Source of the DNA: an uncultured Clostridia bacterium | GTDB lineage: Bacteria; Bacillota; Clostridia; TANB77; CAG-508 | Length of the DNA: 33,916 nt | Direction of reading: 5' to 3' | NCBI GenBank assembly: GCA_904419095.1 | Contig: CAJFQT010000002.1 | Location: forward strand, 1 to 33,916 | Shown: positions 4,241 to 33,916 of the stretch, piece after piece | Layout of the letters: each line of letters starts with the position of its first letter | Position numbering within the stretch: the first letter of the stretch is position 1 | The notes under the pieces: model-generated | The model's input: the letters and a program-made list of their open reading frames with translations, nothing else | Databases searched by the model: none | What the model was told of the DNA's origin: nothing | Translations under genes and position numbers: made by a program

Positions 4241-4253
4241 GAAGGAGGCTTTT

Positions 4254-5453: not shown

Positions 5454-5460
5454 TAGAGAT

Positions 5461-6048: not shown

Positions 6049-6055
6049 TATGGCC

Positions 6056-6268: not shown

Positions 6269-6343
6269 TACTCTACAATAAATTATTTTTTGCTATTTTG
6301 GAAGAGCATGGGAAAGGGGACGTAAGATTTAAATATTAATGAT

Positions 6344-7105: not shown

Positions 7106-7117
7106 AAAGGGTGTAAT

Positions 7118-8347: not shown

Positions 8348-8386
8348 TAAATGATTAGTTTATTAATATAGATTGGAGATGGTAGA

Positions 8387-9421: not shown

Positions 9422-9451
9422 AAGTATAGATGGAAATAGGAGGTTTAAATT

Positions 9452-10636
9452 TTGAAAATATTGGTTACAGGTTCAAATGGATTTGTTGGTAAAAATTTGG
9501 TTGAGAAATTGAAAAATAGGGGATATAATCAAATATTGGAATTTACAAAAGAGAATAGTATTGAGGAGCTTGAGAGATATACTAGAGAGTGCAATTTTGT
9601 GTTTCATTTGGCTGGGGTAAATAGAGCTATGAGTGAGAGTGATTTTCAAGATGGAAATGTCGAGTTGACAAAGAAACTGGTTGAGTTTTTAGAAAAAAAT
9701 AATAATAATTCTCCAATTTTGTTTACTTCATCAGTTCAGTCGAAGTTAGATAATTTTTATGGAAAGAGTAAAAGGCAATGTGAGAAGATTTTTTTACAAC
9801 ATGCAAGTAGAACTAATGCTATTGTATACATATATAGACTAACAAATGTTTTTGGAAAATGGTGTAAGCCGAATTATAATAGTGTTGTTGCGACTTTTTG
9901 TTATAATATTGCGAATGATTTGCCAATTAAAGTAGAGAATAAAAACAGAAAGTTAGAGCTTGTGTATATTGATGATGTATTAGAAGATTTTATATCTAAA
10001 CTTGAAAATAATCTTGTGGTTTGTAAAACAAAAAAAAGAGAAATAGAATTGAAATCAGCACATTTTTTTAAGATAGAGAAAAGTTATTTTATAACTGTAA
10101 AAAGATTAGCTGATACAATATGCAATTTTGAAGAGCAGAGAAAAAAGTTAGTAATACCAGATTTGAGTGAAGAGTTTATTAGGAAATTGTATAGTACTTA
10201 TTTAAGTTATGTTCCAGCAAGCAAGTTGAAGAAAAAATTAAAAAGTAATGTAGATGAAAGAGGAAGTTTTTCAGAAGTTTTAAAGTCAAAAGAGGCTGGG
10301 CAAATTTCAATTAATATTGCAAAACCAAATGTAGTTAAAGGTAACCATTGGCACCATACAAAGATGGAAAAGTTTTTGGTTGTTTCAGGAAAAGGTGTTG
10401 TAAGGTTAAAGAATTTGAATTCAAATGATTTAATGGAGTTTTTTGTTAATGGGGATAATTTTGAGGTGATTGATATTCCTGTTGGATATGTTCATAATAT
10501 AGAAAATTTAGGAGATTCTGATATGATTACATTGATGTGGGCAAATGAAATATTTAACCCAGAAAAAGCAGATACATATGGAGGTGTTATAAGTGGAAAA
10601 GTTAAAATTGATGACAATAGTAGGAACGAGACCTGA
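9452..10636 (+). CDS. capF: CapF/FnlB-type bifunctional reductase/epimerase (SDR domain plus C-terminal cupin)
   Basis: TTG start behind an AGGAGG RBS. ILVTGSNGFVGKNL Rossmann motif and a C-terminal cupin-like DERGSF....G....N......KGNHWH. Sits between capE and capG. Confidence 0.8.
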   Translation: MKILVTGSNGFVGKNLVEKLKNRGYNQILEFTKENSIEELERYTRECNFVFHLAGVNRAMSESDFQDGNVELTKKLVEFLEKNNNNSPILFTSSVQSKLDNFYGKSKRQCEKIFLQHASRTNAIVYIYRLTNVFGKWCKPNYNSVVATFCYNIANDLPIKVENKNRKLELVYIDDVLEDFISKLENNLVVCKTKKREIELKSAHFFKIEKSYFITVKRLADTICNFEEQRKKLVIPDLSEEFIRKLYSTYLSYVPASKLKKKLKSNVDERGSFSEVLKSKEAGQISINIAKPNVVKGNHWHHTKMEKFLVVSGKGVVRLKNLNSNDLMEFFVNGDNFEVIDIPVGYVHNIENLGDSDMITLMWANEIFNPEKADTYGGVISGKVKIDDNSRNET

Positions 10637-11720
10637 GATTATAAGATTGTCTGAAGTGATTAAACTTGCTGATAGAAGTTTTAATCATATTTTGGTACAT
10701 ACTGGTCAAAACTGGGATTATAATTTAAATCAAATCTTTTTTGAAGAGTTGGGCATAAGGAAACCAGATTATTTTTTAAAGTGTGCAGGGGATAATTTGG
10801 GTGTGACTATTGGAAATATTATTGCAAATACATATGAAGTGATGCAAAATGAAAAGCCAGATGCAGTTTTAATTTTAGGTGATACTAATTCGAGTTTATC
10901 TGCAATATCAGCTAAGAGATTGAAAATACCGATATTTCATATGGAGGCTGGTAATAGATGTTGGGATTGGAATGTGTCTGAAATGATAAATAGAAAAATT
11001 GTGGATCATATATCAGACGTAAATTTGCCATATACAGAGCATGCAAGGAGATATCTTTTGTCAGAAGGTATAGATGGTAAAACAATATTTGTAACAGGTT
11101 CACCAATGAGGGAAGTTTTAGAAAAGAATAAAGAAAAAATAGAAAATTCTAATGTTTTAGAAGATTTAAATCTAAAAAGGGATAGATATATATTAGTTTC
11201 GGCACATCGAGAAGAAAATATAGATAATGAAAAAAATTTTTTTATGTTGATGAATACAATTAATAATATAGCGGAAAAATATAGTATGGAAGTTATTTAT
11301 TCTGTGCATCCTAGGAGTAAAAAGTTTATTGAGAAAAGAAATTTTAAATTTCATCCATTAGTGAGAACTTTAAAACCTTTTGGATTTTTTGAGTATAATA
11401 ATTTACAAAAAAGTTCGTATTGTGTTTTATCTGATAGTGGCACACTTTCAGAAGAGAGTTCTATTTTGGGCTTTTCGGCAGTACTGCTTAGGACATCGAC
11501 AGAAAGACCAGAGGTTATAGATAAAGGAAGTATTGTGATTGGTGGTATTGAAGAAAAAACAGTAAAACAGTCTATTGAGCTTGCAATCTCTTTAAAGAGA
11601 GAGATAGAAGTGAATAAATTAGCCATTGATTATATGGATAATAATGTTTCTGAAAAAGTTGTTAGAGTTATACAAGGGTATACACAAATAATTAATAAAT
11701 GTGTGTGGATGAAGGGATAA
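10593..11720 (+). CDS. capG: UDP-N-acetylglucosamine 2-epimerase, non-hydrolysing (CapG/FnlC)
   Basis: KLMTIVGTRPEIIRL, LVHTGQNWDY, ILGDTNS, H.EAGNRC and SDSGT..EES motifs. GTG 10593 is preceded by GGAGG and overlaps capF by 44 nt. ATG 10611 is an alternative start. Confidence 0.9.
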   Translation: MEKLKLMTIVGTRPEIIRLSEVIKLADRSFNHILVHTGQNWDYNLNQIFFEELGIRKPDYFLKCAGDNLGVTIGNIIANTYEVMQNEKPDAVLILGDTNSSLSAISAKRLKIPIFHMEAGNRCWDWNVSEMINRKIVDHISDVNLPYTEHARRYLLSEGIDGKTIFVTGSPMREVLEKNKEKIENSNVLEDLNLKRDRYILVSAHREENIDNEKNFFMLMNTINNIAEKYSMEVIYSVHPRSKKFIEKRNFKFHPLVRTLKPFGFFEYNNLQKSSYCVLSDSGTLSEESSILGFSAVLLRTSTERPEVIDKGSIVIGGIEEKTVKQSIELAISLKREIEVNKLAIDYMDNNVSEKVVRVIQGYTQIINKCVWMKG

Positions 11721-11721
11721 A

Positions 11722-12861
11722 ATGAAGAAAAAAGCAAAGGTTTTGATAATGTATTCAGGTTATCTTCCTGCTAAAACATATGGAGGACCTGTTAATTCGA
11801 TTAGTAATATAGTTCAGGCATTGGGTGAATGGTTTGATTTTTATGTGATTGCTTCAAATCATGAGCTTAAAAGTATTAAGAGATTAAGTGGTATTAGATA
11901 TGGTTGGAATAGGATAGGATATGCTAATGTTAAATATTTATCAGATGAAGAATTAAATGTGAAAAATATTTTGTGTCAAATAAAAGAAGTTTCTCCTGAT
12001 GTGATTTATTTGAATAGTGTTTTTTTGTATAAATTTGTTATTGCAAGTTTGAAGTATCTGAAAAATCATAAAGTAAAGTTGGTGATTGCTCCACGAGGAG
12101 AGGTGTGTACAAATGCTTTGAAGATTAAAAGAGTAAAAAAAGAGTTGTATTTGAATTTGTTGAAAAATATTAGTTTAAAGGATGAGATATATTGGCATTC
12201 TACTTCTGATGAGGAGACTAAAGGTCTTATTAAGAAATTGAATATTTCGCCAGTGAAGATACAGAAATGTGAGGTTTTGCCAGAGAAGGTTATTCCTGAA
12301 ATTAGTTATAAAGTTAAAGAAAAAAGTAAATTAAAATGCGTTTTTATTTCAAGAATTTGTGAGAAAAAGAATTTGATTTCTGCTATAAGATATGTGAGAA
12401 GGGCAAATATTGGAGTTACATTAGATATATATGGGTTTAAAGAAAACTTGAAATATTGGCAGATGTGTAGTAAGGCGATTGGTGATTCAAGAAGAATTAA
12501 ATATTGTGGTGAATTGGAGTCAAAAGATGTAATAAATACATTTAATAAATATGATTTGTTTTTATTTCCAACTATGAGCGAGAATTATGGACATGTTATT
12601 GAGGAGTCTTTGATTGCTGGTTGTCCTGCTTTGATTAGTGATCAAACTCCGTGGATGGATATTATGGATAAAAATGCAGGGTTTATTGTTAGGTTGGGAA
12701 ATGATAAAGAGTTTATTGGTGTTTTGAATCGTTTGTGTGAATTGGGTAATGATGATTATTGTATGCTAAGAAAAAATTGTAGACAATATGTTGCTGAAAA
12801 AAATGAGTATTATAGTGTAGTGGAAAAGTATAAGCGTTTATTTGGTGTATTGAATTTTTAA
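11722..12861 (+). CDS. GT4-family glycosyltransferase
   Basis: 379 aa with GT-B features, including the C-terminal EN(Y)GHVI.ESL..GCP.L.S motif. The RBS GAAGGGA overlaps the capG stop. Confidence 0.75.
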   Translation: MKKKAKVLIMYSGYLPAKTYGGPVNSISNIVQALGEWFDFYVIASNHELKSIKRLSGIRYGWNRIGYANVKYLSDEELNVKNILCQIKEVSPDVIYLNSVFLYKFVIASLKYLKNHKVKLVIAPRGEVCTNALKIKRVKKELYLNLLKNISLKDEIYWHSTSDEETKGLIKKLNISPVKIQKCEVLPEKVIPEISYKVKEKSKLKCVFISRICEKKNLISAIRYVRRANIGVTLDIYGFKENLKYWQMCSKAIGDSRRIKYCGELESKDVINTFNKYDLFLFPTMSENYGHVIEESLIAGCPALISDQTPWMDIMDKNAGFIVRLGNDKEFIGVLNRLCELGNDDYCMLRKNCRQYVAEKNEYYSVVEKYKRLFGVLNF

Positions 12862-12942
12862 AATGAAAATTGGGGATAGAGGAATTTTGATGCTGAGAAA
12901 GTATTTAAAAATTGAATAGTTATGTTTTTGTGATTTAGCATA

Positions 12943-13040
12943 GAGATGGGCCGTCCGAAAGGTTGGTAATGATGTGTTTTAAAATTTTTCCTACTCACTG
13001 CATTCAGAAAGAAGTTGTAGGGCTCTCTCATGAGCCTCTT
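12943..13040. repeat. Truncated copy (left half only) of palindromic element A
   Basis: 12943-13040 aligns with 6047-6145. A 53-bp core ttcctactca.t.cattcagaaagaa.ttgtagggctctctcatgagcctctt differs at 3 positions. No right arm is present. Confidence 0.85.
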
Positions 13041-13057
13041 GAGTTGGTGGTGGTTTT

Positions 13058-14260
13058 GTGAATATTTTGTATTTTGGTAATTTTTGTGATTTGGGTTTGA
13101 TGAAAAGAGATGAGAAGAGAAGTAAACATACCTATAAAATGGCACAGTATAATTATGAAAAGGCTTTTTGTGATGAAATGTGTAAAGTGAATTCTTTAAA
13201 AATAGTGTCACTTTATCAACAAGAATGTTTTCCTAAAAATAAGCTTATTTTTGTGCGAAAAAGTCGTAAATATTTAAATAAAAAAATACAATATATATGG
13301 TATATTAATTTACCTTTTATAAAGGAATTGATATATTTTATTAGTGCTTGTTTTATAATTCTTTTTTGGAATTTTGGATGTAAGAATGAGCAGAAAAAAT
13401 GTATTTTTGCTAATTTACATTATGCACCTGTGTCTTTGGCGATTGTATTTATGGGAAAGATTTTGGGTGTGAAAAAAGTGATTGCTTTTACTGATTTATC
13501 TTTATATACATATTCAGATGAAAAGATAGGAAAAATGCCTTTATATAAGAAGGTTTTAATTAAGCCTTATGTGAGAGTGGTTAATAAATTACAGAAGAGT
13601 TATGATTTGTATATTTTGTTCTCTGAGCCGATGAAAGATGTTGTGAATAAAGCAGGTAAACCATATTTGGTTATGGAGGGAATTTATAATCCTGATGGAA
13701 TTGTTTTTGAAAAACAGGAAAAATGTAATGCTATTTTATATGCTGGTAAATTAAATAGAGAAGTGGGGGTTCAAAAAATTTTAGATGTTTTTAATATGAT
13801 TGATGATGATAGTTTGGAATTGTGGTTTTTAGGAAATGGAGATATGAAGGATGAAATTCTGGAAGCTTCTAAAATTAATAAGAATATAAAATATTTGGGA
13901 TTTAGAGACAGAAAAGAAGTTTTTAGATTTTTGCAGAAAGCTAAATTGTTAATTAATTTAAGAAATCCTGATGATGAATATACAAAGTATTCTTTTCCTT
14001 CTAAGACTTTTGAGTATATGGTTTCTGGTACACCAATGATTTCTACTGATTTAGAGGGGATTCCTGATGAGTATAAGAAATATATGTTTATGGTTGATTA
14101 TAGTGATGAGAAAATAGTTGATAAGATTTATGAGATTTTAAATTTAGATGATACTTTTTTAGAAGAGTTTGGAAAAAAAGCTAGGGAATTTGTGTTGAAT
14201 GAGAAGACCCCATGTGTACAAGTGAAAAGGGTGAGTAGATTTTTAAAATCTTATGTTTAA
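13058..14260 (+). CDS. Glycosyltransferase (GT4-like)
   Basis: 400 aa, GTG start (MNILYFGNF...). The C-terminal half has GT-B signatures (YAGKL, LGNG, SKTFEYMVSGTPMIST). Confidence 0.65.
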   Translation: MNILYFGNFCDLGLMKRDEKRSKHTYKMAQYNYEKAFCDEMCKVNSLKIVSLYQQECFPKNKLIFVRKSRKYLNKKIQYIWYINLPFIKELIYFISACFIILFWNFGCKNEQKKCIFANLHYAPVSLAIVFMGKILGVKKVIAFTDLSLYTYSDEKIGKMPLYKKVLIKPYVRVVNKLQKSYDLYILFSEPMKDVVNKAGKPYLVMEGIYNPDGIVFEKQEKCNAILYAGKLNREVGVQKILDVFNMIDDDSLELWFLGNGDMKDEILEASKINKNIKYLGFRDRKEVFRFLQKAKLLINLRNPDDEYTKYSFPSKTFEYMVSGTPMISTDLEGIPDEYKKYMFMVDYSDEKIVDKIYEILNLDDTFLEEFGKKAREFVLNEKTPCVQVKRVSRFLKSYV

Positions 14261-14333
14261 TTAGAATATAAAACAAGTAAACTGGAAATAATTCAAAATA
14301 AGAAACTGTAAATATGGATTGAGGAGAAATTGA

Positions 14334-15671
14334 ATGTCTTTTTTTATATTAGTACTGATTATTGTGGGAATAATAATATTTCAAAAAGTAGATATAGATA
14401 GAAATATTAAGAAGATTTCATTGGCGTATTTGCTTATGACAGGAGTTATTCTTTTCATTTCTTCCTTAAATCCATTGAAGTTGTATAATGTTTCAAATTA
14501 TACATATTTATTGGTTATTGTAAGTATTATTGCATTTATAGTGCCATTTTTTTTAATTTCTAAGAAGATTATTAAAGAGAAACCAACCTATAATATAATG
14601 AATGAAAATATTAGTGTAACACTTAATAAGCTTTTAAAATCAAAAATATTTATATCAATAGTTATTCTTAATTTAATATTAGTAACAATTTATAAAATAA
14701 AATATGATTTCATAATTCAAGACTTACCTAAGCAAGAAATAAGAATGGCAAGATTTAATTCTCTATTTTCTAACACAATGGAAGCATTATTTTTTAATTA
14801 TATTATTACAGGTCTAGTAAATATATTGTCAATTATTTTTTCCATTTCTTTAGTGCATAAGAAATTCAAAAATCTTGTATTTATTTTAATTGGTTTAAAT
14901 ATAATTATATATTCTTTAATTGGATATGGTAGAATGATATATTTTAACATTTTTTTGTATATTGTTATAAATATGTTATTAAAAAGAGATATAAGAAGCT
15001 ATATTAATAAAAAATTTTTAGTTAAGTTAGTATCGGTTTGTTTGGTTGTTTTTGCAATTTTTACATCTATGGTTTATATGAGAATTGGAAAAAAGAGTTC
15101 ATCAGTTGGCGAAAATATAGTTTTATCTGTAAAAAATCAATTTGAACAAGTTGTGGTATATCTAGTAGGGGAATATAGACTATTAGATTATTTTATAGAA
15201 AATGGTTTTGAAGATTTTAAATCTTATACACTAGGAAGAGCAACTTTGGCAGGAGCAGAGGAAATTTTGTTATATCCAATAAAAGCTTTTGGTATAGATG
15301 TAAAATCTTTTAATAATATTGTATCTCAATATACTCAAAAATCTATTCTTATAGGTGAGAATAATTCATATTTTAATGCATATTATACTTGTATAATGAA
15401 TTATTATTTGGACTTTGGAATATTAGGGGTTATTATTTTTCCTATATTGCACAGTGCATTAATAGTTTTGGCTTTAAAAAATTATTATTTACAAAAAAAT
15501 GTTTATTCATTGATGTTATTTAGCTTTGTTTTGTTAAACTTATTTTTTGGAGTAATAAGATGGAATTATCAATCAGGGACAACTGTTTTTGTACTTGCTA
15601 TTTTGATAGTTTTAAATATGCTAAATAAACCAAAATTATCTGAGGAAAAAACTTTAAATGAAGATTTTTAA
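14334..15671 (+). CDS. Polytopic membrane protein, Wzy-type repeat-unit polymerase candidate
   Basis: 445 aa with about 10-12 hydrophobic helices, no soluble-enzyme motifs, a good GAGGAG RBS and a position inside a Wzx/Wzy-type locus. Confidence 0.55.
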   Translation: MSFFILVLIIVGIIIFQKVDIDRNIKKISLAYLLMTGVILFISSLNPLKLYNVSNYTYLLVIVSIIAFIVPFFLISKKIIKEKPTYNIMNENISVTLNKLLKSKIFISIVILNLILVTIYKIKYDFIIQDLPKQEIRMARFNSLFSNTMEALFFNYIITGLVNILSIIFSISLVHKKFKNLVFILIGLNIIIYSLIGYGRMIYFNIFLYIVINMLLKRDIRSYINKKFLVKLVSVCLVVFAIFTSMVYMRIGKKSSSVGENIVLSVKNQFEQVVVYLVGEYRLLDYFIENGFEDFKSYTLGRATLAGAEEILLYPIKAFGIDVKSFNNIVSQYTQKSILIGENNSYFNAYYTCIMNYYLDFGILGVIIFPILHSALIVLALKNYYLQKNVYSLMLFSFVLLNLFFGVIRWNYQSGTTVFVLAILIVLNMLNKPKLSEEKTLNEDF

Positions 15672-15680
15672 ATTTTATGT

Positions 15681-16973
15681 ATGATATTTAAGTTAAGGTA
15701 TCAAGAGAAAGGGAAGATAGTGAAAGTTTTATGGATTGTTAATAAAGTATTTCCATATCCTGCAAGAAGGCTTGGGATGAAGGAAAATGTTTTTGGTGGA
15801 TGGCTTGAAGGTTTAGCTAATAAATTAAAAGATATTTCGGGAGTAATTTTAGCTATTGCAACTGTGTATAATGGTAATAAAATTGCTTTTTTTGAAGATA
15901 ATAATATTAAATATTATCTAATTCCAGGTTTTCCTGCAATAAAATATAATAAGAAATTAGAACAATATTGGAAATATGTAAAAACTCAATTTAATCCAGA
16001 TATTGTTCATATACATGGTTCAGAATATTCTCATGGTTTAGCTTTTGTAAATATTTTCACAGAAATTAAAACTGTAGTATCAATACAAGGCCTGATATCT
16101 AAATGTGAAGAAGTCTATTATGCGAATATGGACTTTTCAGATATTTTAAAAAATATTACATTTAGGGATTTTATAAAATGTGATAATTTAATTAATCAGA
16201 AGCATAAGTTTAAGATAAGAGGAAAAAATGAAATAGAATTATTAAAGAAAGTAAAATTTGTAATAGGAAGAACTAATTGGGATTATGCAAATGTTAAAGC
16301 TATTAATCCTGATGTGAAATATTATAAGGGCAACGAAACTTTAAGGAATAGTTTCTATAATAAAAAATGGGATATAAATAAAATAGAGAGAAATTCAATT
16401 TTTTGTAGTCAAGCTGGGTATCCGATAAAAGGATTTCATTTTCTTATACAAGTAATCTACTTGTTAAAAAAAGTAAAACCAGATATAAGGCTATATGTTG
16501 CAGGACAAAATCTTTTTGATGCTTCAATAAAGTCAAAAATAAAAAGAAGCGGATATACAAATTATGTATTAAAACTGATAAAAAAATATAATGTAGAAGA
16601 GCAAATAATATTTTTAGGCTTGCTAACTGAAAATCAGATGGTAGATAGGCTACTTAAAACAAATGTATTTGTTTTACCTTCTGTAATAGAAAATAGTTCT
16701 AATTCTTTATGTGAGGCAATGTTACTTGGAATGCCTTGTGTTGCAAGTAATTCTGGTGGAACAATGGACTTGTTAGAAAATAGAAAAGAAGGATTTTTAT
16801 ATCCATATACAGAGCCAGCCTTATGTGCAGAATATATTTTGAATTTTTTAAACGATGATAATATGGCTGTTAAAATGGGGAAAGGTGCTAGAAATAGAGC
16901 TTTAATTAGACATAATTCAGAAAAAAATGTAAAGGAAATTTTAGATATATATAAAGACATACTAAACTTTTAA
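15681..16973 (+). CDS. GT4-family glycosyltransferase
   Basis: VLWIVNKVFPYPA N-terminus, plus LPS..E..SNSLCEAMLLGMPCVASN.GG (the E-x7-E region). The true start may be GTG 15720, behind AGGGAAG. Confidence 0.75.
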   Translation: MIFKLRYQEKGKIVKVLWIVNKVFPYPARRLGMKENVFGGWLEGLANKLKDISGVILAIATVYNGNKIAFFEDNNIKYYLIPGFPAIKYNKKLEQYWKYVKTQFNPDIVHIHGSEYSHGLAFVNIFTEIKTVVSIQGLISKCEEVYYANMDFSDILKNITFRDFIKCDNLINQKHKFKIRGKNEIELLKKVKFVIGRTNWDYANVKAINPDVKYYKGNETLRNSFYNKKWDINKIERNSIFCSQAGYPIKGFHFLIQVIYLLKKVKPDIRLYVAGQNLFDASIKSKIKRSGYTNYVLKLIKKYNVEEQIIFLGLLTENQMVDRLLKTNVFVLPSVIENSSNSLCEAMLLGMPCVASNSGGTMDLLENRKEGFLYPYTEPALCAEYILNFLNDDNMAVKMGKGARNRALIRHNSEKNVKEILDIYKDILNF

Positions 16974-17147
16974 TCTTTTTAACTTTTTTAAGTAAGTTTA
17001 AAGTTTAAAATTTAAAATTTAAATTTTAACATTTTTGTATATAAAAAAATCTACAATTTTAAATTTTCAAATATTAAAATAGCTATAATTTTAAACTTTA
17101 AAAATATTTAAAATCCTCAAAATCTCAAACAAAGAGGGGTGTGAATT

Positions 17148-18098
17148 TTGAAGAAAATTATTTTATATAATCCTGCTATTTCATCATTAAATAAAGGAGA
17201 TGAAATCATTGCAGAAGCTTGCAAAGAAAATATTTATAGTTTCTTTCCAGATAGTATGTATGTAGAAATATCTACGCATTTACCAATAAACAATAAATAT
17301 TTAGAAAGAATTAAAAAAGTTAATTATTCTTTTGTTTTAGGAAGTAATTTATTAATGTCAAAAATGGATGCAAGATTTAGGCAATGGGATATAAAAATGT
17401 GGAATGTAGATTATATGAAACCAGTAATTTTGATGGGAGTAGGATGGAATAGATATTCAGAGAAAGCAACATATTATACAAAAACTTTATATAAAAAACT
17501 ATTCTCAAAAGAATATATACACAGTGTAAGAGATGAATACACAAAGTTAAAATTAAATGAAATAGGTATAAACAATGTAATTAACACAGGATGTCCTACA
17601 TTTTGGGACTTTGACAAAAATTTGTGCAGACAAATCCCAAAAAATAAAAATGAAAAAGTTATTTTCACATTAACAGATTATAGAAGAGACTATAAAAAAG
17701 ATAAACAATTTATAGAAACCTTAAAGAAGAACTATAAAGAAATATACTTTTGGCCCCAAGGAATAGACGATTATGAATACTTAAAAGAACTAGAAAAATC
17801 TAACATAATACAGACAATTCCCCCAGCGCTCAGTGAATTTGATAAAATTTTAGAGAAAAAAATAGACTATATTGGCACTAGACTACACGGAGGAATAAGA
17901 GCATTAAAATATAGATGTAGGACAATTATCTTAGCAGTAGACAATAGAGCAATAGAAATAAATAAAAACTATAACATACCAATACTAAAAAGAGAAGAAA
18001 TCGATAAACTAGAAGAAGAACTAAATAATGAATTAATTACAGATATAAAAACGCCTATTACAAATATAGAAAAATGGAAAAATCAATTCAAGGTATAG
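17148..18098 (+). CDS. Polysaccharide pyruvyl transferase family protein
   Basis: TTG start after an AGAGGGG RBS. N-terminal ILYNPAISSLNKGDEII and central GTRLHGGI resemble the CsaB/WcaK pyruvyl transferase family. Confidence 0.65.
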   Translation: MKKIILYNPAISSLNKGDEIIAEACKENIYSFFPDSMYVEISTHLPINNKYLERIKKVNYSFVLGSNLLMSKMDARFRQWDIKMWNVDYMKPVILMGVGWNRYSEKATYYTKTLYKKLFSKEYIHSVRDEYTKLKLNEIGINNVINTGCPTFWDFDKNLCRQIPKNKNEKVIFTLTDYRRDYKKDKQFIETLKKNYKEIYFWPQGIDDYEYLKELEKSNIIQTIPPALSEFDKILEKKIDYIGTRLHGGIRALKYRCRTIILAVDNRAIEINKNYNIPILKREEIDKLEEELNNELITDIKTPITNIEKWKNQFKV

Positions 18099-18110
18099 GT
18101 ATAAATTATC

Positions 18111-18430
18111 CAATTTGTGGTTTGAAAATAGAAGGCTGATTGGTGTTTGGGTTGTTTTAGGTAGAGTATAAATTGGGTACGTTGCCCGCTCCTGGAGGTA
18201 TGTATATAAAATATTTATTCCACTCCTCGGCTTGTTACATTGCCTACGCCTTCTAAGCCTAAAATAAACGAGCCTCTCGTTACATTCTTCACGCTTCCTC
18301 ATTTATTTTAGTCTAAGAAGGCGTACGACAATTCCACGGCACACTCGTCGTTACATAAATATTTTATATACATACCTCCTAACGCTGACTGAGCTACTGT
18401 TTTTGCCTTCTATTTTCAAGTTACAAATTG
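18111..18430. repeat. ~320-bp nested palindromic element C, related to element A
   Basis: Outer 26-bp inverted repeat 18111-18136 / 18405-18430 (3 mismatches). Perfect 25-bp inverted repeat 18194-18218 / 18355-18379. Inner 24-bp inverted repeat 18245-18268 / 18302-18325 (2 mismatches). The core shares gagcctct...cattcttca...ttcctcatt with element A. Confidence 0.85.
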
Positions 18431-19401
18431 AAAAGAAGCTTTTAATAATTACGAGGAAGGAGAATGAGATATTGTTGGAAAAATATAAAGTAAAATCTCC
18501 AGTTGCAATATTACTTTTTAACAGAGTCGAAAACACCAAAAAACTTTTTAACATTATAAAAAAAGTAAAACCAGAAAAACTATTTCTCATCGCAGATGGT
18601 CCAAGAAAAGAAAATAAAGAAGACACTATTAAATGCGAAGAAACAAGAAAAATCTTTGACAACATTGATTGGAACTGCAAAGTTTATAAAAAGTTTTCTG
18701 ACAAAAATTTAGGCTGTGCAAAAAATGGATATACAGGATTTAGTTGGGTATTTGAAAATGTAGAGGAAGCTATTTTTTTAGAAGATGACTGTATACCAGA
18801 CATAAGCTTTTTCAAATTCTGTGACGAATTACTAGAAAAATATCGAAATGATAGCAGAATAATGCTAATTAGTGGAACAAATCAATTAGGAAATTGGAAA
18901 AAAACAGATTATAGCTATCACTTTTCAAGATTTGGTGGAATTTGGGGTTGGGCTTCTTGGAGGAGAGCTTGGAAATATTATGATTTTGATATGAGACTCT
19001 GGAATGATAAAGAAGTTAGAAAAAATTTAAGAAAGCAATTGAACTTTTTTCAATATATTTCACGTAGGGATATTTATAATCAAATATATAATAAAACAGC
19101 CAAGTTTAGTTCTTGGGCTTATCAATGGGGATTTGCTAGAATTGTACAATCAGGGCTTGCTATTTCACCTTGTGTAAATTTAATAACCAATATTGGGTCT
19201 GGAAATGACGCTACAAATAACAAGAAAAAATCTTCTGTTTCAAACTTAAAATCATTCGAAATGAAATTTCCACTCAAACATCCTCAATTTGTTTTGCCAG
19301 ATGTGGAATATGACAAGAAAATTTATAACAAAATTCAAGGGTCTAATTATAGAATTTTAAAAAATTATTTATCTTATAGAGTTAAAAGAGTTTTGAAGTA
19401 A
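18403..19401 (+). CDS. GT-A-fold glycosyltransferase-like protein (HlpA-like family)
   Basis: VAILLFNR......LF..I.K.KP.KLF...DGPR and an EDD (DxD-like) motif. The real start is probably TTG 18472, after the GGAAGGAG RBS, because 18403-18430 lies inside element C. Confidence 0.55.
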   Translation: MPSIFKLQIEKKLLIITRKENEILLEKYKVKSPVAILLFNRVENTKKLFNIIKKVKPEKLFLIADGPRKENKEDTIKCEETRKIFDNIDWNCKVYKKFSDKNLGCAKNGYTGFSWVFENVEEAIFLEDDCIPDISFFKFCDELLEKYRNDSRIMLISGTNQLGNWKKTDYSYHFSRFGGIWGWASWRRAWKYYDFDMRLWNDKEVRKNLRKQLNFFQYISRRDIYNQIYNKTAKFSSWAYQWGFARIVQSGLAISPCVNLITNIGSGNDATNNKKKSSVSNLKSFEMKFPLKHPQFVLPDVEYDKKIYNKIQGSNYRILKNYLSYRVKRVLK

Positions 19402-19509
19402 AGGATTTCTCAGAACGAAGTTTATTTTAATTGTATCAGGGAAATTGATTGGTATTGAATTAATATTAAAATATAAAAGTTAAAATCAGCTTTGTAGAAA
19501 AGGGGAAAG

Positions 19510-20859
19510 ATGGAAAAAAATATTACCTTAAAAAATATTTTTGGAAATAGTATGTGGCAAATTGGAGAAAAGATTATAACAATGATTTTCTCTGTTTTTG
19601 TTACTTCTATTGTTGCCAGATATTTAGGAACAGAAGACTATGGTTTTGTAAATTATATTATTTCAATTGTGATGCTTTTTACAACTTTTTCTACTTTAGG
19701 AATGGAAAAAATCACCATTAAAGATATTATTGAAAGAGAAGAATCAGAAGAAAGAATTTTAGGTACAAGTTTTTATATTAGATTAATTGGTGGAATAGTA
19801 TTAATATTTATATCACAAATAACAATTTATATATTAGATGAGAAAAATATGTTGGCGCAGCTTTTGGGATTGATAATGGGATTATGCATGATTTTTAGAG
19901 CATATGAAGTTATAGAATATTATTTACAGTCTCAAATGAAACTAAAAACTATTTCAATAATAAGATTTTGTTCAACATTTTTTGTAGCGATTTTAAGAAT
20001 ATTAGTTGTTATTTTTGATTGGGGAATAGTAGGATTTACTGCAACATATTTATTTGATGCAATAATTGTAGCGGTGCTTTTAAAAATATGGTACAAGAAA
20101 AGAAAAAAACTTAAATTTAAGTTTAGTTTAGAATATGCTAAAAGAATTTTATCAAAATGTTGGTATGTGGCAATTAGTGGATTGATGGTTACATTATATA
20201 TGAGAATTGACCAAGTTATGCTTGGTTCAATGCTTGATAATAAAACTGAAAATGGTATATATTCAGCAGCTGTTAGAATTGCTGAAATCTGGTATTTTGT
20301 TCCAACTGCTATTATTTCAGCTTTTCAACCAGCAATTGTTATGAAAAAAAAGTATAGTGAAGAGCAGTATGAAAAATCTATGCAAAGATTATATGATATA
20401 GTGGCAATTGTTGGAATAGCTTTTGGAATTTTGATTACGCTTTTTGGAGATATTGCAGTTCAAATATTATATGGTGAGGAATATAAAGGTGCAACATCAA
20501 TATTAAAAATTAGTGTATGGGCAGGTTTATTTGCTACTTTAGGGACTGCTAGGTCTGTATGGCTTGTGAATGAGAATTTGCAAAAATATAGTTTGATTTA
20601 TACATCTATTGGTTGTGTTACAAATATAGTATTAAATTATTTCTTGATTCCTAAAATTGGTGCAAGGGGAGCAGCAATTGCTACACTAATTGCTCAGTTT
20701 GTAACAAATGTATTGGCATTAGTACCGTTTAAAAAGACAAGAAAATCTTCTACTATGATTTTGAAATCTATATTTTTAAATCAAACTGTGAAAGATGTTT
20801 TTAAAACTTTTAGAATTAGAATAAATAATTTATTTTTTAGAGAACAAGGGAGGGGTTAG
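19510..20859 (+). CDS. wzx: Wzx-type polysaccharide flippase (MOP superfamily)
   Basis: 449 aa with about 12-14 TM helices and the typical N-terminus (NIFGNSMWQIGEKIITMIFSVFVTSIVARYLG..DYG). Confidence 0.8.
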   Translation: MEKNITLKNIFGNSMWQIGEKIITMIFSVFVTSIVARYLGTEDYGFVNYIISIVMLFTTFSTLGMEKITIKDIIEREESEERILGTSFYIRLIGGIVLIFISQITIYILDEKNMLAQLLGLIMGLCMIFRAYEVIEYYLQSQMKLKTISIIRFCSTFFVAILRILVVIFDWGIVGFTATYLFDAIIVAVLLKIWYKKRKKLKFKFSLEYAKRILSKCWYVAISGLMVTLYMRIDQVMLGSMLDNKTENGIYSAAVRIAEIWYFVPTAIISAFQPAIVMKKKYSEEQYEKSMQRLYDIVAIVGIAFGILITLFGDIAVQILYGEEYKGATSILKISVWAGLFATLGTARSVWLVNENLQKYSLIYTSIGCVTNIVLNYFLIPKIGARGAAIATLIAQFVTNVLALVPFKKTRKSSTMILKSIFLNQTVKDVFKTFRIRINNLFFREQGRG

Positions 20860-20968
20860 TAATCCTTCTAATTGAATATACACAACATCAGTAAGGAATG
20901 AAGATATTGTGATACAGAGTAAAGTTAATTTTTTTGAATATAAATGGTGTTTTTGAATAAAATGCAGT

Positions 20969-22114
20969 ATGGAAATATTAATCTCAATGTCAAGTTTAAA
21001 GTTATTTGGAAATTATCAAGAAGTATTAGTGATTTTATTTTTTATACTGTTTTTTTATATGTTATATAGATTTAAAAGAATAGTATTTAATGTAAATCTA
21101 CTAGTTCTTATCGGATTTTCATTAACATATTATTTAATTTCGCTTAAATATTCACAAGATGTAAGTCAAATATCAATTTACTGTATTTTGGCTTACTATA
21201 TAGGTTTAATGCTTGTTGCAGTAAATAAAAATAAGGATAAATGTATAATAAAATATACATATGCTATTGCAATTGGTTTTTTTATTCACGCAATGCTAAA
21301 TTATTTAGTAAATGTAAACTCAGATAGTAGAAATACAATAGACTTTTGGACACATGGGGTAAAGTCAGCAAGTTTGCAAGCTATAATGCTTACAATGATT
21401 ATGGGTACTAGTTTTTTTTCTTTAATTTGTTTGAAAGAAAAATGGAAAAAAATAATTTTTCTTATTTGTATTTTGTTTGCAATATTGTATGACTTAATTC
21501 TATCTACAAGAACACTGTTAATTGTTGGGGGGATTTCTATTGCTATATCATTTATAATGTTTGTAATTTTGAATTATAAAAATAATAGGCAAGAAATAAA
21601 TAGATGTCTTAAAACGATTTTCTTTTTGATGTTATTTGTTTTTATTTTTTATTCTATAAATTTTCTAGGAATAAAAAATGTAGTTAATGAATCTAATTTT
21701 TCTGCTAGAATGAGAAAAATAGATACAACAGAAGTTGATAAAGACAGAGTAGAAACTCAAATTTTATCAATTGGCAGTCTATTTGAATATCCAATGGGAG
21801 GAAATAATGAAGAAATTGGAAATTTAAAATATGCTCATAATATGTGGTTTGATGTTGCAAAACAAGCAGGAATTATTCCATTTGCATTGCTAGTTTCTTT
21901 TTTTGTTATTAACTTGAGAAATTTGTTTAATTTGATAAAAAATCCAAAAGTGAGTTGTGAGCTTAAGATTTTTTTAGTTGGAATTTATGTGGCTGTGTTA
22001 CTTAATTTTTTTGTTGAACCTATTATGCAAGGAGAACCTTTATTTTTTATAATGTTTTGTATGGTCATGGGAATGGTTGATGAAAGGCGAATTTTTGATA
22101 TCCATAAAGTTTAA
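20969..22114 (+). CDS. O-antigen ligase / Wzy_C-like polytopic membrane protein
   Basis: 381 aa, multi-TM, with an external loop containing YAHNMWFDVAKQAGIIPF (the H-N...G-I motif typical of the O-antigen ligase/polymerase domain). The start codon is uncertain because there is no clear RBS. Confidence 0.6.
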   Translation: MEILISMSSLKLFGNYQEVLVILFFILFFYMLYRFKRIVFNVNLLVLIGFSLTYYLISLKYSQDVSQISIYCILAYYIGLMLVAVNKNKDKCIIKYTYAIAIGFFIHAMLNYLVNVNSDSRNTIDFWTHGVKSASLQAIMLTMIMGTSFFSLICLKEKWKKIIFLICILFAILYDLILSTRTLLIVGGISIAISFIMFVILNYKNNRQEINRCLKTIFFLMLFVFIFYSINFLGIKNVVNESNFSARMRKIDTTEVDKDRVETQILSIGSLFEYPMGGNNEEIGNLKYAHNMWFDVAKQAGIIPFALLVSFFVINLRNLFNLIKNPKVSCELKIFLVGIYVAVLLNFFVEPIMQGEPLFFIMFCMVMGMVDERRIFDIHKV

Positions 22115-29919: not shown

Positions 29920-29967
29920 TGATAATGAGTTTTAATGGAGAATAAAAAGGTAGAATAATTATATAAT

Positions 29968-30029
29968 AAAACTAGTCAAGTATCTTTGAATTTTGTGTTT
30001 CAATTTAAGATTTTTGACTAGTTTTTTTA
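29968..30029 (+). terminator. Terminator-like long hairpin after the histidine kinase
   Basis: aaaactagtcaa ... ttgactagtttt followed by a T-run, with an inner ttgaa/ttcaa sub-stem. Confidence 0.55.
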
Positions 30030-30395
30030 TTTATTGAATTAATTTGATTTATAAATTTAATAAGTACAAAATAAATATAGCATTTTATTAGAAAATTTTC
30101 AATATGCAAAAATAAAAAAAAATTAAAATTAAGATATTTTTTGGTTTTTTTAAATCTTTATTTTTTCTTTAATTTTAGCTTTTGTTGGGTTCATCGATAT
30201 TTTTGTTAATCAAATTAATTTACAAAAAATATAGCATAAATCATTTAATCGTTGGGTAAATTAAACTTAGATAAAAACATACTTAATAAATTAGAATTTT
30301 ATAAATAATCAATAATATTATAGTCTATTTACTGCAACATCTATTTTTTATAAATTTAAATTTTTATTTTACAAAAATTAAGGAGGAATATTTCA

Positions 30396-32150
30396 ATGTA
30401 TTATCAAAAGAAAAATTTTAAAGAAACAAAAGGTATAACATTAATAGCATTAGTACTAACAATAATTATTTTATTAATACTAGCAGGAGTAACAATCTCA
30501 GCGCTTAGTGGAGATAATGGAATATTGAATAATGCGACCAAAGCGAAGGAAGAAACAGAAAAAGCTAGTAGAGAGGAAAATGCAATATTACAAGGTTTAT
30601 TAGATGAAATGGATAATATAAATCCATCAACAGATGGATTTAATGAGGCAAAAAATGTAAATAGTCCAAAATTAAGTCAAGGAATGATACCAATAAAATA
30701 TAATGGCAGTAATTGGGTAGTTTGTGCAGAAGATGACGATGATTGGTATAGTTATGATAATAATAAAAAGTGGGCAAATGTAATGTTAAGTGACGGAAAA
30801 TATAAAGAAGGACAAGTACAAGTGGGACAAGTTGTGGAAGAAAATGAATTAGGAAGTATGTATGTGTGGATACCAAGATATGCATATAAAATAAATGGAA
30901 CAAATAGTATAGATGTTACATTCTTAGCAGGTAACACAAATAGAGATGGAGCAGGTACAGAATATGCAAAAGAATCAGCGGAAGTAGATACAACTACAAC
31001 TAAAATTGTTCATCCAGGATTTACATTAGGAAATAGAGAATTAAGAGGAATATGGGTTGCTAAGTTTGAAGCAAGTGGAACTGATAGCAATGGAAATGCA
31101 GTAGGAAATGCAAGTGCAGATTCTGGTTCACAGAAATATGCACCGGTATCAGGTGTAACAATAGCAAAAAGCTTACCAAATAAAATAAGTTGGAGACATA
31201 TAACTATAGGAGAGAGCGAATATCAAAGTATGCTAATTGCAGGAGATAATAAAGATAAATATGGATTAAATGGGGCAAGTAGTCATCTAATAAAAAACAA
31301 TGAATGGGGAGCAGTAGCATACTTGTGTTATAGTAGTTATGGAACTGTGCCAAAAACTAATAGTTGTGGAACATTAGTTCAAGATAGTCATTGGTATGAT
31401 TTATATACAGGGCAAGGACCAAAAACATCAACAAATGAAGGTTGGTATTCATATGAAGAAGGACATGGATATAATACAACAATAGGAATGTTATCAAGTA
31501 CAACTGGAAACATAACTGGAGTATATGATATGGCGGGAGGAGCTTACGAAAGAGTAGCAGGATATTTAGATAACGGAAATGGAAATTTAAATACTTATGG
31601 AAAAAGTACAAGTAATAGTAGTATAAAATATTTTGAAAGTGGAACTTTAAAATCAGAATATAAAGATTTGTGGAATAGTTATGAAGTAAGTGAAGAAGAA
31701 AAGACAAATAAAATACAAATAGAAGGAGAAGGAACACTAACCCAAAGTCAATTGTGGAATTGGAATAAAAATGATTTAAAATATCAAGAAGCAAGAAAAA
31801 GATTAACACAGGCAATTTATGAAAATATGGCAGTTCATAAAGGAATAGGCATTAATGAAGTATCAACAGGCTTTTCATTTTATGCACCATATAAACCAGC
31901 AGAAACGGCAAAAAATCAGGCTCCATGGGGGTGGTTTAAAAATCCAGAAACAGCAGCAAAAAATAATCCAAGTCAAGAGTATGGAAAAGCATGGAGTAAT
32001 GATAATATGCTAATAGGACATGCTTCGGTGCCGTTCGTTGTGCGTGGTGGTGGTTGCAGTGATGGTAGTGGTGCTGGTGTGCTGTATGCGGGGATTACTG
32101 GTGGTTACGCTAGCAACAACAGCGGGTTCCGCGCTGTGTTGGTCGTGTAG
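30396..32150 (+). CDS. DGR variable (target) protein: prepilin-like N-terminal anchor, large extracellular region, C-terminal lectin/FGE-like variable domain
   Basis: AGGAGG RBS. N-terminus KGITLIALVLTIIILLILAGV resembles a class III (prepilin-type) signal/anchor. The C-terminal ~43 aa (HASVPFVVRGGGCSDGSGAGVLYAGITGGYASNNSGFRAVLVV) are encoded by the VR and end in the GFR-type motif common in C-type-lectin-fold DGR targets. Confidence 0.85.
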   Translation: MYYQKKNFKETKGITLIALVLTIIILLILAGVTISALSGDNGILNNATKAKEETEKASREENAILQGLLDEMDNINPSTDGFNEAKNVNSPKLSQGMIPIKYNGSNWVVCAEDDDDWYSYDNNKKWANVMLSDGKYKEGQVQVGQVVEENELGSMYVWIPRYAYKINGTNSIDVTFLAGNTNRDGAGTEYAKESAEVDTTTTKIVHPGFTLGNRELRGIWVAKFEASGTDSNGNAVGNASADSGSQKYAPVSGVTIAKSLPNKISWRHITIGESEYQSMLIAGDNKDKYGLNGASSHLIKNNEWGAVAYLCYSSYGTVPKTNSCGTLVQDSHWYDLYTGQGPKTSTNEGWYSYEEGHGYNTTIGMLSSTTGNITGVYDMAGGAYERVAGYLDNGNGNLNTYGKSTSNSSIKYFESGTLKSEYKDLWNSYEVSEEEKTNKIQIEGEGTLTQSQLWNWNKNDLKYQEARKRLTQAIYENMAVHKGIGINEVSTGFSFYAPYKPAETAKNQAPWGWFKNPETAAKNNPSQEYGKAWSNDNMLIGHASVPFVVRGGGCSDGSGAGVLYAGITGGYASNNSGFRAVLVV

Positions 32151-32155
32151 CACTT
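32017..32155 (+). repeat. DGR variable repeat (VR), the 3' end of the target gene
   Basis: Aligns to 32234-32372 at a constant offset of 217 nt. Over 32020-32155, 123 of 136 positions are identical and 12 of the 13 mismatches lie opposite TR adenines. It is clearly more GC-rich than the AT-rich surrounding sequence (by eye). Confidence 0.92.
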
Positions 32156-32233
32156 TGAAGTGACCTAGAGCCTAAATACCTTTTTTCGGCACAAATTATT
32201 ATATAGGTATGAAATAAAATACGGGATTAAACT

Positions 32234-32372
32234 GAAATGCTTCGATGCCGTTCGTTGTGCGTGGTGGTAATTGCAATAATGGTAGTGGTGCTGGTGTGCT
32301 GTATGCGAATATTACTAATGGTAACGCTAACAACAACAACGGGTTCCGCGCTGTGTTGGTCGTGTAGCACTT
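32234..32372 (+). repeat. DGR template repeat (TR)
   Basis: A non-coding copy of the VR in the same orientation. In the VR frame it carries 11 AAY (Asn) codons, 9 of which are altered in the VR. A 32-bp identical 3' segment (gggttccgcgctgtgttggtcgtgtagcactt) is consistent with an IMH-like region. Confidence 0.9.
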
Positions 32373-32561
32373 CGATACACAAAGATTATTTTAGTAATCT
32401 ATCCCAGGTAATATTTGTTTAAGGACAAAATTGAGAGTAGTATACTTTAAAGTTAAGACATCAGGATTTGTATCAAAGAAGTTTAATTCCATTGACATGC
32501 ATATGTCATAAACACATAAATAGTAAATTTGTTCTAGTAAGAAATGAAAGTCCAGATTTAT

Positions 32562-32627
32562 AAAAAAATAATTTGCTATAATTCAGATAAGAATAACTTT
32601 GTTTGAATTGTTGCAAATTATTTTTTT
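32562..32627. terminator. Bidirectional terminator-like hairpin between the TR region and the 3' end of the RT gene
   Basis: aaaaaaataatttgc (32562-32576) / gcaaattattttttt (32613-32627). The A-run and T-run flanks allow termination on both strands. Confidence 0.55.
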
Positions 32628-32656
32628 AATAAAATTTTTAAAATAATTTAAATAAT

Positions 32657-33775
32657 TTATAATAAAGAATCTCTTTTAAAATTTTCAATAGATTCAAAAA
32701 ATTTTTTATATTCTTCTTGATAATAACTTTTATTTACTAAAAAATCACATTTGTTTAATATTTTTTGTTGAAGATTATATGAATTACAATGAGATGAATG
32801 TCCAAGCCAAGAATTTAGGCGAGGTAATACTTTTTGAAAATTTAAATTTCCATTTTTGTATAAATTATTCCAGTTTTTAATTTTTCTCTTAATTTTTTTC
32901 TTGCTAGAAGTTCTAAGGAGTCTATGCGTTGAAAAAATTCTATACCCACAAAAATTCACACCCATTTTTGATGGATAATATCTGGATTTATCATTTAAAG
33001 TTAAATGGAGATGTTGAGCAAGGAATTCCTCAATAATTTGTTTATATCTTTTACAATCTAATTTATTTTCTAGTAAAATTATAAAGTCATCCATATATCG
33101 TACATAGTATTTTAAATGTAAAGTTCTTTTTATATATTGATCTAGTTCATTTAAATAAATGTTTGCAAAAAATTGGCTAGTATAATTACCAATAGGAATA
33201 CCAATAGTAGAATTGGAATCAGAACAGCTGAAGATTAATAATTTTGTAAAATCCAATAATTTTTTATCAGATATATATTTTTTCATTATAGAAAATAGAA
33301 TGTTTTTATCTATATTATAAAAAAATTTTTTTATATCACATTTTAAAATCCAATAATCAGGATATGATCTTTGAAAAATTCTCATTTGTTTTTGAATATA
33401 ATCCACAGCTTTGTGAGTTCCTTTATCTGTTAAACAGGCATAAGAAGAAAAAATAAATTTAGGAACTATATAGGGTTTTATAAATTCTTCTATATACCAT
33501 TGATGTACTATTCTGTCTTTGTATGGTAATGCTTGAATAATACGTTCTTTAGGTTCATAAATGATAAAAGAACGATATTTTCCTACCTTATATGTATTAT
33601 TTTTAATATTATTTAAAAGGTTTATAAGATTATTTTCTAAATTAAGTTCAAAATTTATGACTTCATATTTAAATGTTTTGTTTTTTTTTGCTCTGTAATG
33701 TGCAGCAAGAATTTTATCAAAAGTTAAGGAATTATCAAAAGCATTTTTTATCGTTTTAGGCATGATGAAATCCAA
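32657..33775 (-). CDS. DGR-type reverse transcriptase
   Basis: RT motifs: YEPKERIIQALPYKDRIVHQ (motifs 1-2), CDIKKFFYNID (motif 3), IGIPIGNYTSQFFANIYLNELD (motif 4, with the DGR-typical [I/L]G...SQ signature), and YVRYMDDFIIL (motif 5, YMDD). The likely true start is ATG 33763 (MPKTIKNAF), downstream of the AGGAGG RBS. There is no maturase/endonuclease or intron RNA domain. Confidence 0.9.
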   Translation of the reverse strand: MDFIMPKTIKNAFDNSLTFDKILAAHYRAKKNKTFKYEVINFELNLENNLINLLNNIKNNTYKVGKYRSFIIYEPKERIIQALPYKDRIVHQWYIEEFIKPYIVPKFIFSSYACLTDKGTHKAVDYIQKQMRIFQRSYPDYWILKCDIKKFFYNIDKNILFSIMKKYISDKKLLDFTKLLIFSCSDSNSTIGIPIGNYTSQFFANIYLNELDQYIKRTLHLKYYVRYMDDFIILLENKLDCKRYKQIIEEFLAQHLHLTLNDKSRYYPSKMGVNFCGYRIFSTHRLLRTSSKKKIKRKIKNWNNLYKNGNLNFQKVLPRLNSWLGHSSHCNSYNLQQKILNKCDFLVNKSYYQEEYKKFFESIENFKRDSLL

Positions 33776-33916
33776 CCTCCTAACATATTACAGATGTCAG
33801 TTATTAATCTGCACCAATATTCGTAATTTTGAGTAGAAATGTAATGGTATTTATGAGAAAGCCTAATTTGAATTTTTAGCAGATTTAGATTTATATCAAA
33901 TTCATTTAAAAATTTT

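Follow-up and report, generated by a model that had tools for sequence, protein, structure and literature searches.

Near the 3' end of a 33,916-nt stretch of DNA from an uncultured Clostridia bacterium (contig CAJFQT010000002.1, positions 1 to 33,916 of the forward strand; hereafter the window) lies a diversity-generating retroelement (DGR), in which a target gene ending in a variable region (VR) is accompanied by a template region (TR) and a reverse transcriptase (RT) gene. To our knowledge, DGRs are the only system with which prokaryotes naturally hypermutate targeted proteins; their density is highest in the human gut. The sequence evidence indicates that the element is a genuine and ordinary DGR of a class already described, with a MutS-like (MSL) gene and avd beside an RT encoded on the strand opposite to the repeats, and we assign it with high confidence to the chromosomal DGRs with an MSL-avd-RT module ('Architecture D' of Wu et al.). 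The first-pass annotation of the window called the DGR complete; target gene, VR, TR and RT are indeed all present, but avd is cut to its last 55 codons and the MSL gene lies outside.

Paired repeats, reverse transcriptase and strain variation

A repeat search and direct comparison revealed an ungapped direct repeat of 142 nt with 89% identity at an offset of 217 nt (32017-32158 versus 32234-32375). Its core consists of the VR (32017-32155, plus strand) and the TR (32234-32372, plus strand), the latter sharing the orientation of the VR and running counter to the RT gene, and the gapless alignment of these two regions proposed in the first-pass annotation was thereby confirmed. In the target gene (30396-32150, plus strand, 584 aa) the VR occupies the 3' end and encodes residues 541-584. 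Its mutable span (32019-32122) is followed by a 33-nt invariant block (32123-32155) resembling an element for initiation of mutagenic homing (IMH), inside which the TAG stop codon falls (32148-32150). The TR contains 30 adenines and ends in the corresponding IMH*-like block (32340-32372).

Within the 139-nt repeat, 13 of the 14 mismatches are at TR adenines, i.e., 13 of 30 adenines were changed versus 1 of 109 non-A positions (139-nt TR core; Fisher p=2.3e-9), and the VR base at these sites is G in eleven cases, C in one and T in one. The 12 mismatches listed earlier, and a thirteenth that had been left as a possible edge mismatch (32019/32236), are all real and each has A in the TR; the accompanying statement that all mismatches are at TR adenines overlooked VR G32093 / TR T32310, the sole non-adenine mismatch in the core. 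Every variable adenine is at the first or second position of a codon in the target frame, in which the TR has 10 AAY (Asn) codons, as in the AAY-codon design that had been proposed. The theoretical repertoire is ~1e15 DNA sequences and ~4e14 protein sequences.

The identical 3' ends are IMH-like and GC-rich as first described (61% GC over the whole block and 79% in its first 14 nt, compared with 28% for the window), although the block is 33 nt long (32123-32155 / 32340-32372) and not 32. It bounds VR/TR identity in all strains and, judging from the alignments, may bound mutagenesis as well. All strains share the first difference past the block, T32156 / C32373, which by this comparison marks the 3' boundary of the repeat. 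An exact search with 30 nt of the IMH block gave no match in species-representative genomes or viral contigs, and at the level of this search the DGR is strain- or species-specific.

The RT gene (32657-33763, minus strand) encodes 368 aa from ATG 33763 and matches Pfam RVT_1. The DGR signature noted in the first pass is present (IGNYTSQ at residue 191, YMDD at residue 223), but the reported end of the reading frame, 33775, is a TTG; the most likely start is ATG 33763 and not this upstream in-frame codon, because a GGAGG Shine-Dalgarno sequence precedes the ATG and homologues are annotated as 368 aa. The closest PDB match is 8ub7, the Bordetella phage bRT (E=5.7e-50, residues 7-335), whereas group II intron, retron, Cas(-linked) and Drt RTs matched at E=4e-14 or weaker, which places the RT with the DGR enzyme and apart from RTs of group II introns or retrons, as the earlier assignment implied.

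An ordinary duplication or gene-conversion pair next to an unrelated RT (of a group II intron, retron or defence system) might produce a superficially similar locus, and the only NCBIfam matches of the RT are to group II intron, Drt3a and retron models. However, these matches are far under their cutoffs (118 vs 300, 70 vs 200 and 59 vs 235 bits), while the Bordetella phage DGR RT leads the PDB matches by 36 orders of magnitude. Likewise, the mismatches are adenine-specific, the TR is invariant and the VR variable across strains, avd overlaps the RT start, and Rfam searches of the window returned no RNA family of introns or retrons. We therefore give virtually no credence to such a pairing, and a group II intron, retron or defence identity of the RT was rejected on the sub-cutoff NCBIfam scores and the bRT match.

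The 3' end of avd (33748-33915, minus strand), comprising the final 55 codons and the stop, shares 16 nt with the start of the RT gene; the remainder is beyond the window. The translation of this end matches the C-terminus of the bAvd-family protein in two related loci (L001 and L087). In syntenic contigs a MutS_I-domain gene (142 aa), avd (121 aa) and the RT follow in order, forming a module that converges on the target-VR-TR unit, and the MSL accessory gene accordingly sits beyond the window edge, past avd. The sister haplotypes encode a full 121-aa bAvd. The Avd accessory protein occurs in ~74% of DGRs.

The behaviour of the repeats was evident from related strains. In seven same-strain assemblies the TR is identical while the VR occurs as five haplotypes, and in four of the seven (L087-L090) the 1,758 nt downstream of the VR are identical as well. 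VR positions that vary among the seven assemblies or differ from the TR comprise 23 at TR adenines and 2 others (p=5e-18), in line with the VR polymorphism at adenine-templated positions and the invariant TR that the first-pass annotation predicted for related genomes. At the protein level, five members of the 90%-identity target cluster (n=17), including that of the window, agree throughout residues 1-540, their differences being confined to ~11 VR codons. In the sister species (L001 and L006; RT 91% identical) the TRs are identical and the VRs differ at 10 sites, all of them TR adenines. When the window TR was compared with that of L001, 9 of the 11 non-A differences were mirrored in the own VR of each species, and a G-to-A change in the sister-species TR is matched by a new variable site in its VRs. 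This is the pattern expected for one-way, adenine-mutagenic transfer from TR to VR, and the comparison indicates that the DGR has been active in related strains.

Recombination with paralogous target genes, in place of retrohoming, could also diversify a VR, and several target paralogues exist in some related genomes (the same megabase contigs recur). Yet the haplotype differences are almost only at TR adenines; over 100 nt they alternate with non-A positions that do not vary, and the backgrounds are otherwise identical. Exchange between paralogues would not respect TR adenines, and a second VR-like copy was not found in the window; we thus consider this origin of the VR diversity very improbable.

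The spectrum of changes differs among haplotypes. Of the 13-15 adenines changed in four same-strain haplotypes, 11 became G, and A-to-T prevails in L090 and the sister species even though the L090 RT is identical, for which we have no explanation. Only 4 positions separate the window VR from those of L091/L092, so these VRs did not arise by independent retrohoming.

The template RNA and Rfam RT-14

We compared 80 related genome loci, from metagenome-assembled genomes (MAGs) of uncultured gut 'Clostridia'/'Bacilli' with Saccharibacteria at the far end, and a home-made finder detected TR/VR pairs in 53 of them. The closest loci have the convergent layout of the window, and farther relatives have a colinear one (VR, TR, MSL, avd, RT). 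Whichever the layout, a conserved stretch of ~200 nt follows the TR on its 3' side.

A MAFFT alignment of 18 loci was used to build, by hand, a structure of 39 base pairs for this RNA. In total, 88% of cells were paired in the 18 loci, compared with 39-50% when the partners were slid, and compensatory changes occurred at 31 of the 39 pairs; the observed values were reached in 0 of 500 shuffles. The structured 3' domain (32370-32562, plus strand) is the analogue of the Bordetella 'Sp' region. It opens with the long-range helix P1, whose 5' strand (32370-32379, CUUCGAUACA) straddles the 3' boundary of the TR and pairs with 32469-32478 (UGUAUCAAAG). Between the two strands of P1 are hairpin a (32382-32400) and hairpin b (32411-32432), the latter with a conserved UUYAAGGA loop, and downstream are hairpin c (32493-32508) and helix d (~32521-32561), all on the plus strand.

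A second long-range helix, the clamp, joins the 11 nt directly 5' of the TR (32223-32233, GGGAUUAAACU) to a downstream strand (32480-32490, AGUUUAAUUCC), both on the plus strand. All 11 pairs form in 24 of 31 loci, and 8 of the 11 were changed on both sides. For the clamp, 97% of cells were paired versus at most 60% with slid partners, a percentage somewhat inflated by taking as the upstream partner the best complement within 70 nt.

Although the window has no Rfam match at gathering thresholds, a permissive search aligned 32445-32562 with the full RT-14 model (RF02921; 38.8 bits, E=7e-4, below the gathering score of 48.1 bits). Six related loci exceed that score (49.9-57.5 bits) at the same position relative to the TR, and the window copy is thus a diverged homologue. 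RT-1 to RT-19 were defined as orphan RNAs near RT genes, with only RT-10 tied to a DGR (Weinberg et al. 2017, PMC5737381). RT-14 was published without an assigned function; here it is positioned as the 3' domain of a DGR RNA, and the conserved position and pairing argue that it is the TR-flanking RNA of this DGR clade. The Rfam model omits the TR and its 5' flank, hence two conserved blocks were drawn as unpaired; in our alignment both pair, and we read these 'single-stranded' blocks as the 3' partners in the two TR-bracketing helices.

The TR-RNA unit and the RT gene converge on a long AT-rich hairpin (32561-32628; 30-nt arms, 87% complementary) that was supported by folding and was not detected in a simple terminator scan. 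It is a candidate bidirectional terminator.

The target protein and a proposed mechanism

The target protein begins with a pilin-like hydrophobic N-terminal signal (~residues 12-38), followed by a helix, a beta-rich region and a C-terminal half ending in the VR. As a single sequence it had no Pfam, NCBIfam or PDB match. A profile of the target family gave one match to the body of the protein, weakly (E=0.029), to TaqVP (5vf4), a Thermus DGR variable protein whose C-type-lectin (CLec) fold is of the formylglycine-generating enzyme (FGE) type; the motifs HLxxNxEWxAVA and GIxDMxGxxWExVAG align the family with TaqVP. Three of eight distant relatives passed the Pfam FGE-sulfatase model over the homologous stretch, and these carry surface-protein repeats. 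We infer that the C-terminal half is FGE-type C-type-lectin-like, with the VR in its ligand-binding face. The FGE-type variable proteins TaqVP, TvpA and Mtd resemble the target in their C-terminal VR ending in ...GFRxVLVV and through its relatives that match FGE-sulfatase; unlike them, the target has large inserts, its similarity is marginal, and no confident three-dimensional model was obtained.

The N-terminal sequence, KG/ITLIALV, has Ala in place of Glu at position +5, a replacement that is invariant across the family, and the Pfam N_methyl score (13.1 bits against a cutoff of 21.2) falls short of the type IV pilin/pseudopilin signature. The first-pass annotation described the target as surface-anchored. 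Diversification of its C-terminus stands, and its N-terminus does have a membrane/pilin-like signal, but anchoring would have to follow from these features and the pilin signature fails; that the target is exposed outside the cell is a reasonable inference from its sequence. Among the farther DGRs of this RT family, the targets of three colinear ones in 'Bacilli' MAGs (L035, L040 and L047) start with a canonical type IV prepilin signal, KGFTLIELL. The family may be descended from pilin-like targets, as these sequences suggest, having lost the Glu that filament assembly requires. VR-bearing pilin-type domains are reportedly scarcely represented in a recent survey.

An exhaustive HMMER search with the target returned 30,404 clusters at 50% identity, many of which share only positions ~85-410. 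This domain is present in up to 14 copies in giant proteins (P0258, P0268 and P0277; 3,700-4,500 aa), and appears to be a very widespread surface-protein module without a covering Pfam model.

We propose the following mechanism, in which cis-priming, the roles of the helices, the dependence on Avd and the localisation and function of the target are carried over from the Bordetella phage system. A plus-strand RNA of ~350 nt (~32223-32575) would carry the TR; because the RT module runs in the opposite direction to the TR, this RNA must be made apart from the RT mRNA. Two covarying long-range helices would clamp the TR, with the 11 nt on its 5' side pairing to the downstream block in the manner of the Bordetella 'cPRT Stop' duplex. 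RT and Avd would then cis-prime on the TR RNA and copy the TR into cDNA with misincorporation at adenines, while the MutS-like protein might modulate mismatch repair. Finally, the cDNA would replace VR 32019-32122, upstream of the invariant IMH-like block, and ~15 codons, mostly AAY, would be recoded in the putative ligand-binding face at the C-terminus of the target.

The best-studied points of comparison are the DGR of Bordetella phage BPP-1 (mtd-avd-TR-brt) and the MSL-containing DGRs. The BPP-1 element shares with this one an RT homologous over its full length, with the template-contacting I-G...SQ motif and YMDD, an Avd gene, a VR at the 3' end of the target with AAY adenines, and a GC-rich IMH-like block. 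Its RNA also has a duplex at the 3' end of the TR (the template:primer analogue), a duplex between the upstream and downstream flanks (the cPRT Stop analogue) and stem-loops 3' of the TR. The cryo-EM structure of bRT-Avd-RNA (PDB 8ub7) contains the template:primer and 'cPRT Stop' duplexes, and such elements were predicted in 207 other DGRs (Handa et al., bioRxiv 10.1101/2023.10.23.563531). In contrast to BPP-1, the DGR described here is chromosomal, has RT-avd on the strand opposite to TR/VR and an extra MutS-like gene, lacks a GC-rich cruciform after the VR, has an RT-14 and not an RT-10 RNA, and diversifies a target with a pilin signal and not a tail fibre.

An MSL accessory gene and the placement of TR and RT on different strands have both been described (Wu et al. 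2018, PMC5758913), and MSL is also found in the Bacteroides DGRs Bfr, Bth and Bun (bioRxiv 10.1101/2024.11.15.621889). Like 'Architecture D' and the MSL-containing DGRs of Legionella and Bacteroides, the present one has a small MutS_I gene adjoining avd/RT, and is cellular, from the gut, and probably diversifies a surface or adhesive protein. It differs in its low-GC Clostridia/Bacilli MAG host and in a target with a type IV-pilin-like N-terminus bearing Ala at +5, whereas the targets of MSL DGRs elsewhere are type V pilus tip proteins in Bacteroides and a lipoprotein in Legionella.

Several observations weigh against this reading. The hairpin after the VR has only a 4-bp stem, no better than in shuffled sequence, and no GC-rich hairpin is present there; a Bordetella-like cruciform was rejected as a feature for this reason, although such a hairpin is present in only 34% of the DGRs surveyed by Wu et al. 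(2018, PMC5758913). No convincing promoter for the TR RNA was found, as the promoter scan of this AT-rich region gave no more hits than in shuffled sequence. To these may be added the sub-threshold RT-14 score and the choice of the upstream clamp strand noted above. AlphaFold2 modelled the target poorly, with a predicted local distance difference test (pLDDT) score of 53 for the full protein and 51 for residues 200-584 with 120 sequences, and the CLec/VR region was unmodelled; the link of the target to the C-type-lectin fold is therefore one of weak or transitive sequence similarity. Activity in the window's own genome is read from comparison of sequences, and not from cDNA or ongoing mutagenesis. 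Lastly, contigs identical to the window carry a frameshifted avd, as described below.

avd deletions, an invertible segment and the genomic setting

Three contigs (L093, L094 and L095) match the window at 100% identity through 10-13.5 kb, the VR included. In L093, avd has lost 19 nt (~13546 in L093), which shifts the frame and leaves a 59-aa product, compared with 121 aa in L087, L089 and L090, and L094 has a different, 20-nt deletion (~10133 in L094), also frameshifting, with a 56-aa product versus 121 aa when intact. The deletion site is ~25 nt past the window edge (equivalent to ~33941), where the L095 contig ends. By this evidence avd was probably lost at least twice independently in the window's lineage, suggesting either recurrent DGR inactivation or a deletion hotspot, and the element of this lineage is probably not functional now. 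No description of recurrent natural loss of Avd was found in the literature searched.

Avd is essential in the Bordetella system. The element of this genome may accordingly be a fossil, with Avd frameshifted, the VR frozen and the VR/TR pattern recording past activity only. The identity of L093-L095 to the window including the VR, the distinct avd frameshifts of L093 and L094, the recurrence of the same VR haplotype in at least three samples, and the non-A change in the window VR (T to G at 32093, as ordinary mutation would give) all favour this view. On the other hand, the deletion site is outside the window and the avd state of this exact sequence was not observed, L095 ends at that site, and the population may be mixed. 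VR haplotypes with an intact avd are also common to several samples; L087 and L088 share one, and an unchanging VR therefore does not by itself point to avd loss. Furthermore, dependence on Avd was demonstrated for other DGRs only. Taking these together, we lean towards a fossil in this particular genome.

Upstream of the target gene, between it and the terminator of a histidine kinase gene, is a probable phase-variation switch (30034-30225). It consists of a left inverted repeat (IR; 30034-30049, TTGAATTAATTTGATT), a 158-bp segment (30050-30207) and a right IR (30208-30225, AATCAAATTAATTTACAA), and the 13-nt core of the repeat occurs exactly twice in the window. The segment is in one orientation in the window, L090 and L093-95 and in the opposite orientation in L087, L089, L091, L092, L001 and L006; between the window and L087, L089, L091 and L092, all differences outside the VR are due to this inversion. 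The best promoter-like site in the segment (30074-30102, minus strand; TTGAAA-17 nt-TGcTATATT) has 10 of 12 matches to the sigma-70 consensus and an extended -10 TG, being a consensus match only; it faces away from the target in the window and faces the target once inverted. From this geometry the window would hold the OFF state and the inverted form the ON state. No invertase or recombinase gene was found among the open reading frames (ORFs) of the window or the neighbouring genes, and no report of an invertible promoter ahead of a DGR target was found in the literature searched.

A hairpin directly after the histidine kinase gene (29960-30033), with 27-nt arms followed by a T-run, is likely the terminator that insulates the target from upstream transcription, and such insulation is consistent with the target needing a promoter in the invertible segment. 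As in gut-bacterial invertons, a short IR-flanked intergenic segment with a promoter-like site before a surface-protein gene occurs both ways round in genomes that are otherwise identical; unlike them, no invertase gene was seen near the segment and the promoter is a candidate recognised by its consensus. In L020 (Clostridium sp. 27_14) a different IR of at least 16 nt, spanning ~150 nt and located ~40-210 nt ahead of the DGR target, could be a comparable switch. It is the one clear candidate among the related loci, most of which have no IR-flanked segment upstream of the target at an exact 11-mer threshold, and the switch is thus not general in the family.

The target gene might be under layered control, in which the switch would turn its promoter on and off and, by read-through, might also gate the supply of TR RNA, tying diversification to expression; recurrent avd frameshifts would 'lock in' a VR haplotype in some lineages. 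Gating by read-through is conceivable because neither a separate TR promoter nor an intervening terminator is evident. We regard this combined scheme as speculative and rather unlikely.

The genes preceding the DGR are pyrD, dapF, an exopolysaccharide cluster, pyrF, mur genes, mraY, ftsW, murG and the histidine kinase gene, and past the cassette are a signal peptidase gene and then holB. Given these housekeeping surroundings, the DGR is cellular and not of phage. The hosts are annotated in MAGs as 'Clostridia bacterium' or 'Bacilli bacterium', which are uncultured, low-GC and from the gut. The exopolysaccharide/capsule cluster (~4200-21000) encodes a DegT aminotransferase, a sugar transferase, a GNAT protein, several GT1/GT4 glycosyltransferases, epimerases, a pyruvyl transferase and a flippase; lying between pyrimidine and cell-wall genes, it is a second locus relevant to surface variation close to the DGR. 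A class I/II aminotransferase appears to be split into two overlapping ORFs (2241-2693 and 2560-3492), with a Pfam match only in the second, to the C-terminal two-thirds of the model, which may reflect a frameshift, a pseudogene or a sequencing error.

The locus leaves the general picture of DGRs unchanged. It provides a clean natural example, in which five VR haplotypes occur on an identical strain background and TR, from a poorly known, uncultured gut lineage with small genomes, and the invertible segment ahead of its target gene is of specialist use. More broadly, the orphan Rfam family RT-14 becomes assignable as the RNA that flanks the TR in a large DGR clade, and covariation supports the two duplexes that set the start and stop of cDNA in the Bordetella cryo-EM structure, which appear to be kept even with the RT on the opposite strand. 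Two independent avd frameshifts within one lineage, in turn, hint at how hosts might shut off diversification.

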